Part shown: piece after piece, positions 25,052-31,406 of the stretch
How positions within the stretch are numbered: the first letter of the stretch is position 1
How the letters are laid out: each line of letters opens with the position of its first letter
Origin: a bacterium
Lineage (GTDB): Bacteria; Arandabacterota; Arandabacteria; Arandabacterales; JALGWA01
Direction: 5' to 3'
NCBI GenBank assembly: GCA_050125095.1
Contig: JASFEA010000015.1
Span: 1-32,279, forward strand
Length of the DNA: 32,279 nucleotides
Notes under the pieces: model-generated
The model's input: only the letters and a program-made list of their open reading frames with translations
The model's database searches: none
What the model was told of the DNA's origin: nothing
Made by a program: the position numbers and the translations under genes

Positions 25052-27727
25052 ATGCGAACCATTGCTATTCCAGTGCTGTTGCTCTCTGTAGTGACCTCGA
25101 TGCCTGCGGCTATTGCGCACATGCCTGATGAGAACAAGGCCGTGGAGTCGCGGAGGCATGAGGTATCACCTGGAAGCATATCGGTTGAGCAGGCCGCAAA
25201 GGGCGTCCGCGGTAACGACATGCTTGGGACGTGCAACCTCACGCCCTACGCTCCGTCGGGCTGGGCCCAGAGGATTGTGCCGCGCGACACCAATGACACG
25301 CGGCAGGACTACTGCCCTTGGTCGGACTCGCTCCCAGGCAATGTTGCCGGGACCTACATGAACCTTGCCTGGATCAACGAGGGACCGGACAGCTGCGGCT
25401 ACAATGAGACGCACCTATTCGTGGACGGCGAGGAGATTGCATGGGGCTATTACTCTGCGATGGGGCCCGGGGGCTGGATATTCGGCCCCAACTGGGGACC
25501 TTTTACCATTCGCGGCGGCAGGCATATCGTGAGCGATACCGTGGACTACTACGACCAGGTCGCCGAGACCGATGAGACCGACAATACATGGATGTGGGCG
25601 TTCAGCTGGACACCCATGATGCTCACCAATGAGGTATCGATATACAGGTCCGTGCCCCCCGAGCGCGGGCCATACCTTTACCCTGCCTGTGATGGCTTCC
25701 AGTTTACGGGAACGTGGTGGAGCGGCGTGGCAATGCTGCCTTTGAATCCCACCGACGACTTCGGGCTGCTTCTCTTCGAGCCCTACGATGGGACATTCAC
25801 GAGTTTCGACGTCAGCCTGGACTATTCGGATGACGTTGCGGGGAACTCGGAATTCGTTCTTATCAACGGCAATCACCCGGGCGTGGGCTATGGGGCCACA
25901 CGCGATGTGGGCGTCGTAAGAGATGGAATCGGGGCTGGAAGCGGTTTCTATATAGACCAGTCAAACGCCGCTGTGCTGATCGCGGCTCCCGGAACGACCT
26001 CTTATGATACACTTGAAGTCAATGAGATAATGGACTTACACACCATCGAATTCACATCCACCGGACTATATTCCGTTGAGCTCATCGTGGCGGACGGTGA
26101 CGCCGACCTGGGTTTATCCCTATACGACTGCGCGAGCGACTATATGGACAAGTTCGACCATGTGCCGGACGGCTTCGCCGAGGATAACGGGTCGGGGCAG
26201 GGAGAGACCCTGCATGTAGCAATATCTGCAACGGGATTCTACGCCGCCGCGATCTGGAAGACGGACTCGTTTGAACGTAACGAGACCGCGGTCTTCCGGC
26301 TTGAAGTCACGAGGTCGCTCCCCAATCTGATTCCTTACACGCCGGTGGGCTGGGACTTTCCGGTGGTACCGCGCGATACGAATGACACGCAGATGGACTA
26401 TGCCCCGCTGTCCGCGGAACTTCCGGGCAACATCGCCGGTACCTACATCAATTATGCATGGCGGAACGACGGACCGGGCGGCGCGGGGCCACACGAAACG
26501 TATTTCTATCTGGACTCGGGCTATCTCTTCCACCAGGGTTTCAGCGGTTTGAATCCGGGAAGCTGGTTCTATGGGCCCAACCAGGGCCCGATAGAGGTCA
26601 GGGGCGGCAGGCATACCATAAGCGAACACGTGGACTACCCGGACGCCGTGGTTGAAAGCGACGAAGGCGACAACTTCTGGGAGCATCAGTTTGTCTGGTC
26701 GCCTCTCGAGCTTACCGAGGACATACCGGTATTGAGACAGCCGCCGCCGGGGCGTGGGGCAGGACCCCATCCCAACTGCGACGGATACAACTTCCCCAAG
26801 CGCAACGACTACACGTACGTTACGGGTCTATGTCCCAGGGCCGATTATGACTACGATCTCTATCTTTATGACGACTATGCCAACAGCCAGTCCGGGTTCA
26901 GCAATCTCCTGGCGATGTCGGAAGCGGGCTCGGGCGAGACGGACTTCGTCGGAGTGCGATATGACCACTATGCCAGCTATCCAGCGGCCGTGGTTGGATT
27001 TGATCCGGGAACCGGCGGAGTTGAGACCAACATGGTTGTCCACGCCGTGACATCGCAGGGGTATGTCGTCTTTGCCTCCGACCTTCCGACGGAGCTCGTC
27101 CACCATATCAGCGCAGGACGAATACTCAGGGTATACAATGTGGAGCTCGGCGCCGGCACATACGACTTCCATCTCGTCAACCAGGCCGGCAATGCCGACC
27201 TCGCTGTGGCGTTAATGCCACCCGCTGCGGGTTTCTACGGGCGCGGTGACGCAACGCTGGAGGCGGATGCCGGCGGCCAGGGCGAAGACGAGGCGTTCTC
27301 GTTCACGTCTGGAGCCCATTACTGGTATGAAGTTGTCGTCTTCAAAACGGGGTACCAGGAGCTGAACAAGTACTGCACGTACCGCCTGAGAATCGGAGAT
27401 GAGGGTACGGCGGGCGCACGTGATGATGTCGCCCGCAGCATACCAGACGACCTGGTGATCGAGCAGAACACCCCCAATCCATTCGGCGCCTCCACATCCA
27501 TAATCTTCGGCGTGCCGGATGGGGGTGCGCACGCGAGCCTCATGGTCTTTGACGTTTCGGGGAGATACGTCGCAACCCTCGTAGATGAGTTCCGGGGGGC
27601 TGGCTACCACAGCGCTACATGGGACGGTACAACATACTTGGGCCTTGAGGCTTCCACGGGAGTCTATTTCTACAGGCTGGACGCAGGGGCCAGCTCTCTT
27701 GTGGGGAGGATGCTTCTACTCAGATAG
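25052..27727 (+). CDS. Large secreted protein with a duplicated CARDB-like/PPC-like module and C-terminal FlgD-Ig/T9SS-like domain
   Basis: Signal peptide; two ~363-aa repeats (NLxPYxPxGW...VPRDTNDT...LPGNxAGTY...RGGRH...VxExDExDN); QNTPNPF...WDG...GVYFYRL...RMLLLR. Confidence 0.88.
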   Translation: MRTIAIPVLLLSVVTSMPAAIAHMPDENKAVESRRHEVSPGSISVEQAAKGVRGNDMLGTCNLTPYAPSGWAQRIVPRDTNDTRQDYCPWSDSLPGNVAGTYMNLAWINEGPDSCGYNETHLFVDGEEIAWGYYSAMGPGGWIFGPNWGPFTIRGGRHIVSDTVDYYDQVAETDETDNTWMWAFSWTPMMLTNEVSIYRSVPPERGPYLYPACDGFQFTGTWWSGVAMLPLNPTDDFGLLLFEPYDGTFTSFDVSLDYSDDVAGNSEFVLINGNHPGVGYGATRDVGVVRDGIGAGSGFYIDQSNAAVLIAAPGTTSYDTLEVNEIMDLHTIEFTSTGLYSVELIVADGDADLGLSLYDCASDYMDKFDHVPDGFAEDNGSGQGETLHVAISATGFYAAAIWKTDSFERNETAVFRLEVTRSLPNLIPYTPVGWDFPVVPRDTNDTQMDYAPLSAELPGNIAGTYINYAWRNDGPGGAGPHETYFYLDSGYLFHQGFSGLNPGSWFYGPNQGPIEVRGGRHTISEHVDYPDAVVESDEGDNFWEHQFVWSPLELTEDIPVLRQPPPGRGAGPHPNCDGYNFPKRNDYTYVTGLCPRADYDYDLYLYDDYANSQSGFSNLLAMSEAGSGETDFVGVRYDHYASYPAAVVGFDPGTGGVETNMVVHAVTSQGYVVFASDLPTELVHHISAGRILRVYNVELGAGTYDFHLVNQAGNADLAVALMPPAAGFYGRGDATLEADAGGQGEDEAFSFTSGAHYWYEVVVFKTGYQELNKYCTYRLRIGDEGTAGARDDVARSIPDDLVIEQNTPNPFGASTSIIFGVPDGGAHASLMVFDVSGRYVATLVDEFRGAGYHSATWDGTTYLGLEASTGVYFYRLDAGASSLVGRMLLLR

Positions 27728-27814
27728 GTTTATGCGTCAGATAAGTCAACGCATCGGGCTGCACCGCTGATAACGGCGCTCTCAGGCGGTTGAGCGACGC
27801 AGTCCGAGCCGCCC

Positions 27815-28390
27815 CTATTTCCAGAGGGTCTTTATTCTGCCCCAGGTCAGCGGCTCCGACTGGATTATCCTGGGTTCGACCCCGGCGGTGGGGTCGATTG
27901 TAAGCGAAAGCCAGTCGAGCCTGGTCCTTCCGCCGTCCAGCATTTCGATTCTTATTATTATGGTGTCCGCAGGCATCAGTATCGAGCCGCTCCCGGCGAC
28001 TTCAGTGTACGACGCGCCCGATCACCCGAGGCCGTAGCCGTAGGTCATGTAGCTCGAGTACGCGAAGGTGGCTGAGCCCTCTCGCCTGAACCTGGCCCGG
28101 TGCTGGCTGAATTCAAAGAGCTCGCCGGCCGACCGGAGGGTATCGTCGTATTCGGCGACCATGTCCAGGACGACCCTGAGCTCGATAAAGTCGCCTGCGG
28201 TATCGTAGCCGTCCACGGCGTAGCCCCCGCTGGCGCCGCTGCAATATGTTACGTAGATCGGGTCGCCGCCCGCGTTATATGAGGCGACGTAGTCTTCGGC
28301 CTCAAGGATTATGGTCTCCGCGAAGGCGACAGAAGCAAGCATGGAAGTGAGGATCAGGATAAACCAAAAAACGAGCACAGATGTTCGCAC
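27815..28390 (-). CDS. Secreted CBM6/CBM35-like beta-sandwich protein with an in-frame TGA (codon 123); candidate selenoprotein of 191 aa
   Basis: GTG start after GAGGGG; signal peptide ending AFA-E; ILEAEDY...CSGASGGYAV. After TGA 28024-28022 the frame continues SGASYTEVAGSGSILMPADTIIIRIEMLDGGRTRLDWLSLTIDPTAGVEPRIIQSEPLTWGRIKTLWK to TAG 27817-27815. Confidence 0.8.
27971..28019 (-). promoter_or_regulatory. Putative bacterial SECIS element
   Basis: Immediately 3' of the UGA: basal GGGCG/UGCCU, UC/GA, GUA/UAC, upper stem AGUCGC/GCGGCU, and apical loop CGGGA starting 26 nt after the UGA. Confidence 0.6.
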
Positions 28391-28421
28391 GTGTCTTGCC
28401 CCCTCTGAAAGGTCAGCCATA

Positions 28422-28450
28422 AGCTTACCAGCCCGAGGCCGCCAAGTCAA
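28422..28450 (-). promoter_or_regulatory. Sigma70-type promoter with extended -10 for the candidate selenoprotein gene
   Basis: TTGACT (28450-28445), 17-nt spacer ending in TGG, TAAGCT (28427-28422). It supports the GTG 28390 start. Confidence 0.65.
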
Positions 28451-28471
28451 GGAATTCGGGGGGTGTCGTCC

Positions 28472-29182
28472 CTATCGCCGGCCGGAGGTGAAGCGATATC
28501 CCACCCCGTGGACGGTGAGAATGTGATGGGGGCTTGAAGGGTCGTTTTCGATCTTGCGGCGCAGCCGCGCGACATGCTGGTCCAGCGTGCGCGTGGTTCC
28601 CTCGTACTTGAGTCCCCACACCTCATCCAGTATGACAGAGCGGTCCAGAACCTTGCCGTCATGCTCGACGAAGAATTTGAGAAGCTGCACCTCCCTCAGC
28701 GTCATCGAAAACCCCGCGCCGCCCTTGCTGCCCTTCAGTGTCCCCGCGTCTATTCTAACGTCAGCGAATTCTATGGGCGTGTCGTCCCACCTCTTCCCGG
28801 CCCCGGCGGGCTCGCCGGAGGCGCGTCTCAAAGCGGCCCTTATGCGCGCAAGCAGCTCCCGGACGCTGAAGGGTTTTACGATATAGTCATCTGCGCCTAT
28901 CTCAAGCCCTACGACCTTGTCCACCTCCTCGCCCTTGGCGGTGAGCATTATGATGGGGGTCCTGCCGTCTGTGCGCCTTATTTCCTTGCAGACGTCATAG
29001 CCGCTCTTCTCGGGAATCATGATGTCGAGGAGGACGAGGTCCGGTCGTCTTTCGGTGTAGACGCTGAGGGCCTTCTTTCCGTCTCTTGCCGACCATACCC
29101 TGAAGCCCTCGCCTTCCAGGAGGTCGATAAGCCCCGAGAGTATGGCCGCGTCGTCTTCAACGACCAGGATCACTTGACTCAT
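28472..29182 (-). CDS. OmpR/PhoB-family response regulator
   Basis: VVEDD, LLDIMIP, IIMLTA, GADDYIVKPF, and winged-helix RTLDQHVARLRRKIE...ILTVHGVGYRF. Confidence 0.96.
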   Translation of the reverse strand: MSQVILVVEDDAAILSGLIDLLEGEGFRVWSARDGKKALSVYTERRPDLVLLDIMIPEKSGYDVCKEIRRTDGRTPIIMLTAKGEEVDKVVGLEIGADDYIVKPFSVRELLARIRAALRRASGEPAGAGKRWDDTPIEFADVRIDAGTLKGSKGGAGFSMTLREVQLLKFFVEHDGKVLDRSVILDEVWGLKYEGTTRTLDQHVARLRRKIENDPSSPHHILTVHGVGYRFTSGRR

Positions 29183-29201
29183 CTAGAACCTGTCCTTCAT
29201 T

Positions 29202-31406
29202 TCAATCCTGTCCTTCAACCCCGGCCAGCGGCAGGACGATAGAAAACGTGCTGCCGCCGCCCTCACGAGCAGCATAGCGGATGTCCCCGCCGTGGTCAGC
29301 AATGATCTTGCGTGCGATCGTAAGCCCGAGACCTGCGCCTTTGACCTCCGATGTCAGCGAGTCGTCGACGCGGTAGAACTCGTCGAAGATGTTACGTACC
29401 TCTCCGGACGGTATGCCGATGCCCCTGTCGCTTATGCTGACAACGGCACGTCCTTCGTCATGCCCCACATCCATTTCTATTTGCCTGACGTCGGGCGAGT
29501 ACTTCTCCGCGTTGGAAAGCAGGTTGACGACGGTCTGCTTGATGGCCTCCTCGTCGGCGCCGACCTCGAGTATGCCGGAGCGCGTCGTGAATTTCACCTC
29601 GAAGCCGTTCTGCTCGAGCCGGGCGCGCTCGCTCTCGACAACGTCGCGGGCGAGGGCGACCAGGTCGCAGGTCCTCATATTGTACCTTTTCTCGCCCCGC
29701 TCCATTCGCGAGAAATCCAGGACGTTGTTTATGAGCCGGGTCAGCCTCTCTGTCTCGGCCGTCATGACTTCGAGGTAGTGTTTCTGCTTCTCGGGGTCGG
29801 CCTGGCGCCCGTCCCGGAGCATCTCGGCGAACATGCGTATGGAGGTGAGCGGCGTCTTGAGCTCATGGGAGACGTTGGCGACAAAAGACGTTCGCTGGCG
29901 GGCGAGCCTGACCTCCGCATATGCGGATCTCAGGACGAGCACGCTTCCCGTGAGAATGGAGACGAACAGGATCAATATGAGTATCCACATCACGGTCGTG
30001 GTCGCCCGCGCCCTTGAGGTAATTGCGTCGGGCGCGGTAAGGTACGCGGCGCTCTCCCAGCGGGGGAGAAGCTCGCTGATTTCCACGGCGACGAATGGTC
30101 GCTGCCAGTCGCGGCCTTCCTCGCCCTGCGGCAGTATAAGCGGATTCCCGCTCTCATCCAGAACCGTGAGGATGCGGACGGGCGAGTAGATATTGGGAAG
30201 AGCGCCCACTATGCGCTCCCTGAAGGCCCCCGAATCGATCAGGCAGCCCATGATTCTGCCGCCCGGCAGCCTCCGCCAGTATATATGCCTGAGCGCGCCG
30301 TCTATAGTCCTCGGGATGATGCCGCTCTGCCGGTCGGCCACGATTTCGCTGAAGCTGAGGGGCTGCTCGACGAAGATCGACCTTATCCTGCCGGCCCCCG
30401 CCGGCCCCACGGCCCCAGCCTGGCCTGCCCTGGGCGCCTCCGGGCGCTTCTCATCGGAGTCAAGACCGGACTCCCGCGTTGCCGGAACCTCCCGCCCCTT
30501 ATCTCTCGTGTCTCCCGCAGCCATATCGTGCGCCGGGGCTGTCGGCTCCACCGCTTCCTCTTCCGCCGCGGCTCCGGCTTCCTCGGCAAGGTACTCCTCG
30601 CCGACCTGGGAGGGGGCGACATTCCTCAACATGACTTTCTGGCCCTCGTCATCGGCCCTGTCGAACACCTTCTGGCGCACTTCTTCGCTTCGCTGGAATT
30701 CCGCGATTGCGCTCTGCTTCTTCGTTTCCACGCCCTTTGCCTGAGGCGCGGCGCGGCCCGTGACCTCGGGCACGCTCCCGGGCAGGGTCGGGTCGTAGGC
30801 GCGCTCCCGCTCTGCCGCGGCCCTCTCGCCGGCCCCAGCCACCGATTCGGCCGCGTCCACGAGCGCCTCCGTCCTGGCGGAAGGCGCCTCCTCACTCTCG
30901 TACACCGTGCTCTCATCAGCTTCTCCCAGGATCTCGTCCTGGAAGGCCACGGCGATGTTCTCGTAAACCAGTATTTCTTCCCTGTCGCTGAAGAAGGCCT
31001 CCTGCTCGGCGGCGAAGGAGTCCTCCTTTGTTTCGCTTTTTTCAGCAGCGCTGCGGGTAGCCGCGGGCCAGAGGATATGGTGTTCCGGTGAGAGCAGGAA
31101 TGGAATCTCCACAAGCGCGGAGGTCCGCTTCCAGGCCTCGAAGACATTGGACGGGTCGCCCGTCTCGGGTGGCGCGTCGGCCGCCGCCAGCTCGTTCTGC
31201 ATGGCGTCCATCTCCGTTGCCACAACGGAGGCCACATGGGTGACATCGGCGGTGAGCGTGCCCTCGAGCTGCTTCTCTATATATGCCTCTTCGTGGCTTA
31301 TTGCTCTTATGGCGAGGAGACTCAGTATTACGGCAGGCACTATTATCGCGGCCATGAAGACTATGCCGATATACTTCCTGATCCCGTATGCCGCCACCGG
31401 TCTCAC
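29202..31406 (-). CDS. Membrane sensor histidine kinase
   Basis: Two TM helices; H-box VSHELKTPLTSI; N-box NLLSNAEKYS; G1 DRGIGI; F-box IFDEFYRV; G2 GAGLGL. Confidence 0.95.
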   Translation of the reverse strand: MRPVAAYGIRKYIGIVFMAAIIVPAVILSLLAIRAISHEEAYIEKQLEGTLTADVTHVASVVATEMDAMQNELAAADAPPETGDPSNVFEAWKRTSALVEIPFLLSPEHHILWPAATRSAAEKSETKEDSFAAEQEAFFSDREEILVYENIAVAFQDEILGEADESTVYESEEAPSARTEALVDAAESVAGAGERAAAERERAYDPTLPGSVPEVTGRAAPQAKGVETKKQSAIAEFQRSEEVRQKVFDRADDEGQKVMLRNVAPSQVGEEYLAEEAGAAAEEEAVEPTAPAHDMAAGDTRDKGREVPATRESGLDSDEKRPEAPRAGQAGAVGPAGAGRIRSIFVEQPLSFSEIVADRQSGIIPRTIDGALRHIYWRRLPGGRIMGCLIDSGAFRERIVGALPNIYSPVRILTVLDESGNPLILPQGEEGRDWQRPFVAVEISELLPRWESAAYLTAPDAITSRARATTTVMWILILILFVSILTGSVLVLRSAYAEVRLARQRTSFVANVSHELKTPLTSIRMFAEMLRDGRQADPEKQKHYLEVMTAETERLTRLINNVLDFSRMERGEKRYNMRTCDLVALARDVVESERARLEQNGFEVKFTTRSGILEVGADEEAIKQTVVNLLSNAEKYSPDVRQIEMDVGHDEGRAVVSISDRGIGIPSGEVRNIFDEFYRVDDSLTSEVKGAGLGLTIARKIIADHGGDIRYAAREGGGSTFSIVLPLAGVEGQD

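Follow-up and report, generated by a model that had tools for sequence, protein, structure and literature searches.

A candidate exported selenoprotein with a carbohydrate-binding-module-like fold, read through an in-frame UGA and belonging to an apparently undescribed family

Bacterial selenoprotein genes with a SECIS inside the ORF, of which E. coli fdhF is the type case, are close described counterparts of the gene reported here. They combine an in-frame UGA, a stem-loop just downstream of it in the coding region, homologues with Cys and the presence of sel genes, and the same features recur at this locus. In the bSECIS model, such a stem-loop has a loop of 3-9 nt, a stem of 4-16 bp, a G within the first two loop positions, a spacing of 16-37 nt between UGA and loop, and a minimum free energy (MFE) of -7.5 kcal/mol or lower (PMC13188914, Fig. 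2 legend). As far as the catalogue in PMC13188914 describes them, most characterised selenoproteins adopt a thioredoxin-like fold with a redox motif, and the exported bacterial members listed there include a TonB-dependent receptor, an outer-membrane barrel and substrate-binding proteins. The protein described here has neither a thioredoxin-like fold nor a UxxC/CxxU motif. Its closest structural counterparts are instead the CBM6 and CBM35 modules (PDB 2cdp, 2w1w, 5fui, 3zm8), with which it has the beta-jelly-roll in common; in contrast to those modules, the selenocysteine (Sec) domain is attached to no glycoside hydrolase and stands alone or after two Ig-like domains.

The gene lies on the minus strand of the window, the whole stretch of 32,279 nt that was analysed. 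It starts at a GTG (28390-28388) and reaches an in-frame TGA (28024-28022) at codon 123, directly after TYGYGLG. The preliminary description had claimed that the frame "ending" here runs on for 68 sense codons; translation reproduced this, with a TAG at 27817-27815 closing the extension. ORF calling with table 11 divides the same region into a 142-residue ORF up to the TGA and a separate 53-residue ORF within the extension. The open frame past the TGA far exceeds chance, and the gene's homologues align end to end with the 191-residue read-through product, in which C50 is the only Cys, as originally stated. The features discussed below are as follows.

27815..28390, minus strand: the whole candidate selenoprotein gene, with a GTG start, 191 codons, Sec as codon 123 and TAG at 27815-27817.
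28399..28405, minus strand: Shine-Dalgarno-like GAGGGGG, 8 nt 5' of the GTG, read from the sequence.
28319..28390, minus strand: putative signal peptide, residues 1-24, with a hydrophobic helix and an AFA/E cleavage-like site.
27896..28318, minus strand: CBM6/CBM35-like beta-sandwich, residues 25-165, spanning the TGA, as modelled by AlphaFold2 and compared by Foldseek.
28241..28243, minus strand: Cys50 codon TGC, the sole Cys and candidate partner of Sec123, invariant in 21/21 subfamily-1 sequences.
28022..28024, minus strand: UGA codon 123, very likely read as Sec, in the motif G-x-G-[ILV]-G-U, with TGA in 41/41 homologues and Cys in 15/15 relatives.
27985..28001, minus strand: SECIS-type hairpin with a 6-bp stem (28001-27996 with 27990-27985) and a CGGGA loop (27995-27991).
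27818..27850, minus strand: C-terminal tag LTWGRIKTLWK, residues 181-191, identified through a genome-wide motif count, with W183 and K187 invariant.

The signals around the start codon agree in part with what had been claimed for them. The Shine-Dalgarno-like run fits a ribosome-binding site of the gene's own, and in homologues the equivalent site upstream of the start translates as K/E-E-V, which would correspond to an AGGAGG-type site. A promoter of its own had also been proposed, but a consensus scan gave no sigma-70-type promoter upstream of the gene; the sole promoter-like site from the scan lies inside the coding region (27985-27957), and no intrinsic terminator was found after the gene by the same scan. 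The N-terminus forms a helix over residues 2-19 followed by AFA/E in the AlphaFold2 model, and a similar N-terminus is present in all 21 subfamily-1 homologues. Residues 1-24 are thus probably a signal peptide, in agreement with the earlier claim.

The decoding of codon 123 was examined through its behaviour in homologues. A six-frame search in which stops were read through compared the 191-residue query with 61 related genomes and gave 44 match rows from 18 of them. The TGA lies inside 41 of these rows; among the other three, one begins just after the TGA at a contig start, one ends just before it near a contig end, and the third spans residues 148-190 only. In the joint alignment, the TGA occupies the identical column in 41/41 complete matches from 18 genomes, following G-x-G-x-G/T/S, and conservation is equally strong after it as before. 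Residues invariant in the 21 closest homologues are found on both sides: C50, G118, G120, U123, Y128, A132, G133, S134, G153, R157, D159, W183 and K187. In an unrelated uncultured bacterium with a 3.6-Mb contig (L098:601-1026), TGA serves both as the Sec codon and, after GSVKALYR, as the true stop.

The same position was also followed in public proteins. A profile built from 21 close Sec-form homologues was scored against 1.84 billion cluster representatives (50% identity clusters), matching 439 proteins with an E-value cut-off of 0.001 and 151 with a cut-off of 1e-10. Among the best 150 representatives, 112 end in G-x-G-x-x, precisely at the TGA position; these are products cut by gene callers. 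Another 15 cross the column, and every one of them has Cys there; the ratio of Sec to Cys forms, 112:15, is biased towards Sec because only Sec forms went into the profile. Fragments, long multi-CBM6 proteins and sequences that diverge ahead of the column account for the other 23. A word-based search gave 21 matches, all of them likewise cut at G-x-G-x-x. A search with residues 124-191 gave no close full-length relatives, and the public protein records of close relatives that were examined are all cut at the UGA. The preliminary description had taken TGA or Cys at position 123, with conservation on both flanks, as the mark of a Sec codon, and this is the pattern observed; Trp, Gly or Arg, which it regarded as signs of a nonsense mutation, were never seen there.

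Downstream of the UGA, the RNA itself appears to be constrained. The hairpin begins 20 nt past the UGA and reads A-G-U-C-G-C, loop C-G-G-G-A, G-C-G-G-C-U. With a 5-nt loop, a G at loop position 2, a 6-bp stem and 26 nt between UGA and loop, it agrees with the constraints given in the figure legend of PMC13188914. Twelve consecutive hairpin nucleotides are invariant in 21/21 close homologues, synonymous sites included. Among 40 conserved codon columns, defined by an identical residue in 19 or more of the 21 sequences, a single codon is used only at V131 (GTC), A132 (GCC), G133 (GGG) and S134 (AGC), whereas the other 36 columns use two to five codons. This absence of synonymous variation in the four hairpin codons points to selection at the RNA level, and as the hairpin lies within coding sequence, protein constraints also contribute to its conservation. 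Cys forms do not keep the A-G-S motif, which fits a constraint present only where the UGA needs recoding.

Covariation in the stem is consistent with this picture. Across the 41 Sec forms, the stem varies with pairing kept (GUCGC/GCGAC, GCUGC/GCAGC, GCCGC/GCGGC, GCCAC/GUGGC and GCUAC/GUAGC); 94.2% of cells are paired in these 41 sequences, compared with 78.7% in shuffles, and five of the six stem pairs show compensatory changes on both sides. Double-change cells number 53, against 14.6 expected from shuffles, a count in which independent events are fewer than cells, since kin share changes and part of the covariation goes back to a single change that a whole subfamily inherited. None of 500 shuffles equalled the hairpin score, and slid controls reached at most 0.158 against 0.551. 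The 55-nt region downstream of the UGA has an MFE of -16.4 kcal/mol, no better than shuffles (z 0.34), and because this folding energy is not significant, the case for the hairpin rests on conservation and covariation. Rfam, searched at E up to 1, has no RNA family that matches here.

The sel genes on which the original proposal depended are present in the host genome, which is 91% complete. It encodes selA (561 bits), selB (380 bits), two selD genes and a tRNA-Sec (75.5 bits), with selA, selB, selD and the tRNA all above curated cut-offs. One of the selD genes, directly upstream of the tRNA-Sec (G000:C59:10192-11321, locus L019/L024), itself contains an in-frame TGA (CSGU ASK), followed by an 8-bp stem and a CGGGC loop that closely resembles the CGGGA loop of the gene studied. 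In a sample of 18 genomes of the phylum, the family occurs in 17, always with TGA, and selA also in 17, the exception being a genome that is 57% complete. G052, the one distant genome in which a TGA form occurs, has selA as well. Elsewhere in the host, TGA acts as an ordinary stop, as had been noted before, terminating 981 of 2267 long frames. A change of genetic code with TGA read as Gly or Trp was rejected on this count, and the lack of internal stops in selA and selB also speaks against it. Considering the TGA/Cys pattern, the SECIS-type hairpin, the Sec machinery and the standard code, all of which support the earlier inference, UGA-123 very likely encodes selenocysteine.

Independent DNA was available from two public runs of different studies (X2 and X4), whose contigs of about 6.3-6.5 kb cover 27806-28500. 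They represent a related strain with 26 differences (22 of them listed), none at the TGA and without indels, so that the check for a sequencing error suggested earlier comes out in favour of the TGA. Downstream of the TGA, 15 codons differ, with 10 synonymous and 5 replacement changes and no new stop, and four of the five replacement codons fall in the linker; the extension is under protein-level purifying selection. Similarity to X2 and X4 ends at 27806, 9 nt beyond the TAG. As a separate observation, 21 of the 22 listed differences lie in the 130 nt after the hairpin (27836-27965), and none is listed in the 366 nt preceding the TGA (28025-28390), a pattern that may reflect a recombination boundary inside the gene. 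An identical 153-nt contig from a further run (X3) crosses the TGA with only 12 nt on one side and was not counted as bridging. A contig from an RNA library (X7) is identical over 27817-28018 and ends 4 nt short of the UGA; for this reason it proves neither transcription nor read-through.

The read-through product is confidently predicted to fold as a single CBM6/CBM35-like domain. AlphaFold2, run on the 21-sequence alignment, gave a model with a pLDDT of 86.8, rising above 90 for residues 31-160. The model is one beta-sandwich of eleven strands, three of which (residues 128-165) are supplied by the extension, and U123 sits in the loop that connects strand 108-117 to strand 128-139, at the end of the Gly-rich loop GxGxGU. 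A linker with pLDDT below 50 and a short helix follow the domain. Foldseek ranked CBM6 and CBM35 structures first: the top match was CBM6 2cdp_A (E 2.8e-7, TM 0.75 by target), with CBM35 2w1w_B also leading, E values ranging from 2.8e-7 to 1e-6 and TM scores by target of 0.67-0.80 for CBM6/CBM35 (0.75-0.80 for 2cdp, 2w1w and 5fui). According to the model, the fold needs the extension for its completion, which agrees with the earlier description of a CBM6/CBM35 jelly-roll finished beyond the UGA.

At the level of sequence, the relationship is more distant. Pfam, searched at E up to 1 with the full-length sequence and with each half, gave no match, and NCBIfam returned 0 families at the same threshold. 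The 15 Cys forms likewise have no match to Pfam CBM_6 or CBM_35 at E up to 0.01, and none in NCBIfam. This indicates a CBM6/35-like fold and not sequence membership of those families. With a natural Cys form as query, the ESM Atlas returned unnamed clusters at 0.85 or below, along with a weak lead to CBM_6 (22% of members). Features in common with the CBM6 consensus are E-A-E-D-Y at the N-terminal start and a strand reading G-D-W-I-E, and the conserved Cys and Sec presumably replace loop residues that line the CBM6 ligand cleft. An enzyme domain is present in 0/41 Sec forms.

The extension also supplies the C-terminal TWGxIK tail that had been pointed out, here placed at residues 181-191, and without decoding of the UGA this tag would not be made. 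In the genome, about 50 further ORFs end in EPxTWGxIKx[LM]Y[RK] (for example C3:14800-15471, C8:33827-36097 and C117:3930-6137). In ten tag carriers that were scanned, the start resembles a signal peptide and the domains are of surface type but unrelated to one another (DUF11, PMP repeats, lamin-tail), and no Pfam or NCBIfam model covers the tag. TWGxIKxLY[RK] is probably a sorting or processing signal. The T9SS type A sorting domain (PF18962 Por_Secre_tail / FlgD_ig-like) is likewise a C-terminal element on many unrelated secreted proteins, but it is a beta-sandwich of about 75-80 residues, whereas the tag here comprises about 10-11 residues after a low-pLDDT linker. The read-through protein has no match to the T9SS sorting-domain models PF18962 or TIGR04183, and one Cys-form relative (P0030) has a Por_Secre_tail/FlgD_ig domain in place of the short tag.

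The family falls into two subfamilies. Subfamily 1 consists of 21 sequences of about 185-200 residues, with signal peptide, domain and tag. Members of subfamily 2 are for the most part lipoproteins, about 360-410 residues long and with a lipobox, in which the Sec domain is C-terminal and the tag absent; its model shows two Ig-like sandwiches followed by the Sec domain, and Foldseek matched this model to surface glycan-binding lipoproteins and again to CBM6/35. Surface glycan-binding lipoproteins with an Ig-like stalk and a distal binding domain, such as SGBP-B of Bacteroides ovatus (PDB 6e57/6e9b), are similar in layout to paralogues such as G000:C30, which combine a lipobox, two Ig-like sandwiches and a C-terminal binding-module-like domain. 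SGBP-B is among the best Foldseek matches for the whole model, with low TM scores (0.18-0.19) that reflect domain arrangement only, and it differs in that the paralogues carry Sec in the distal domain and no SusC/SusD-type context was seen around them. Every searched genome of this uncultured phylum that carries the family has several paralogues. The host (G000) has four copies, on C15 (the gene studied), C80 and C30, with a fragment on C124.

The neighbourhood of the gene was also inspected. Directly upstream, separated by an 81-nt gap, are genes for a response regulator of the OmpR type and for a histidine kinase of 734 residues (28472-31406, minus strand). The two recur in only 1 of 7 loci checked and the neighbourhood is kept only within the genus; no functional inference was drawn from it. 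Convergent with the gene is that of an 891-residue secreted protein (25052-27727, plus strand), which has an internal duplication with two blocks of the form PRDTNDT..DY.P.S..LPGN.AGTY.N.AW.N.GP, a CARDB match and a FlgD_ig/T9SS-like C-terminal domain.

Other explanations for the interrupted frame deserve consideration. Read-through of the UGA might involve no selenium: Trp, Cys, Arg or Gly would then be inserted by a near-cognate or suppressor tRNA, with the hairpin as a general stimulator of read-through. The frame is clearly translated past the UGA, the inserted residue is assigned by sequence comparison, and the site is Gly-rich (GxGxG-UGA), all of which this explanation accommodates. It is nevertheless improbable: full-length relatives have Cys in every case and never Trp, Gly or Arg, selA is present in every tested genome with a TGA form except the one that is 57% complete, TGA is a common stop among the long frames of the genome, and the hairpin both fits the SelB-type bSECIS model and has a loop resembling that of the selD hairpin of the same genome.

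Alternatively, the gene might really stop at the TGA. Gene callers end the protein there, as do all the word-search matches and the 112 truncated representatives, and a few C-terminal pieces of 51-53 residues have been called, with an ATG at 27976 in the present gene; a functional 122-residue product would then be accompanied by a separate small gene or a complementing polypeptide. However, M138 is not conserved, so that a second gene would lack a conserved start or ribosome site, a single TGA is all that ever interrupts the frame, and the Cys forms are single chains. In addition, half a jelly-roll short of three strands is, on the AlphaFold2 model, unlikely to fold, which makes a genuine stop here highly improbable. 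The assembly is fragmented (268 contigs), which might suggest a pseudogene or an assembly or sequencing error at 28022-28024, but the recurrence of the TGA across 18 genomes, at 41 loci, and in contigs from two further runs, along with purifying selection downstream, led to the rejection of this explanation, whose likelihood is negligible. The best explanation overall, and one held with considerable confidence, is that the gene is single and intact, encodes an exported protein of some 19 kDa, and has its UGA-123 decoded as Sec.

If UGA-123 is a Sec codon, Cys50 is its natural candidate partner. C50 is present in 39/41 Sec forms and in 15/15 Cys forms. The two Sec forms without it are tandem copies in one genome (G017) that have a Cys two residues before Sec instead (C-T-U and C-G-U); one of these copies lies inside a 734-residue protein with many Ig-like repeats (G017:C6:46399-48266, locus L057), and the hairpin stems of the two differ by compensatory changes. 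One truncated database form without C50 ends in G-G-C-S right before the stop, and about 4 of the 112 truncated Sec-type representatives have no Cys in the C50 loop. This relocation of Cys next to Sec suggests that the two act together. Cys50 and Sec123 may, with about even chances on the sequence evidence, constitute a reactive site, either a selenenylsulfide redox switch or a soft-metal or sulfur/selenium site. Both the C50 and the Sec loops may border the canonical CBM6 ligand cleft.

A working mechanism can be outlined on this basis. The SelB/tRNA-Sec machinery very likely decodes UGA-123 as selenocysteine, the signal being the in-ORF SECIS hairpin with its GUCGC/GCGRC stem plus one pair and its CGGGA loop 20 nt 3' of the UGA. 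The product consists of a putative signal peptide, a CBM6/CBM35-like jelly-roll, a variable linker and the short tag. Within it, Sec123 would work with Cys50 as a reactive pair, and what was once a glycan-binding surface module would now bind by covalent or redox chemistry. A more speculative and rather doubtful extension of this idea is that the ligand cleft was rebuilt around Cys-Sec into a surface 'chalcogen-binding module' for sulfur, selenium, soft metals or thiol partners. Under that tentative proposal, the module would use selenenylsulfide chemistry, would be displayed free or on an Ig-like stalk, and would be delivered by an undescribed C-terminal sorting tag. If true, this would be the first lectin-fold selenoprotein, and its family one in which Sec forms prevail over Cys forms.

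The earlier statement that this is not a described family holds for the sources compared. No curated model in Pfam or NCBIfam matches, and Table 1 of PMC13188914 has no such fold or motif among its 119 families and subfamilies; Table S2 of BSepDB (PMC13326102) and the supplements of deep-Sep (PMC12013277) lay outside the comparison. Among the matches listed for selenocysteine or selenoprotein together with carbohydrate-binding module or CBM6, no title or abstract concerns such a family, and no literature was found that joins selenoproteins with Eisenbacteria. An exported CBM-like selenoprotein had been called unusual, which stands for the fold and the family, both new; export itself has precedents among the surface proteins catalogued in PMC13188914. 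The selenoprotein family is thus apparently undescribed, with a recoding mechanism of known kind, whereas its fold, its location and the dominance of Sec are new. Sec forms outnumber Cys forms (112 versus 15 among the best 150), subject to the bias of the profile towards Sec.

These findings bear on both selenium biology and annotation. Sec is here placed in a lectin-type jelly roll, and in view of the export signal the protein probably acts as a surface-displayed one, exposed to the exterior. That the family is large is shown by the 112 of the best 150 clusters (50% identity) that end at the UGA, and with the public records of close relatives cut at the same point, annotation pipelines miss both the family and the tag that follows the UGA. 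It offers a training example for selenoprotein predictors where Cys homologues are rare, and a test case for selenium chemistry at the bacterial cell surface.
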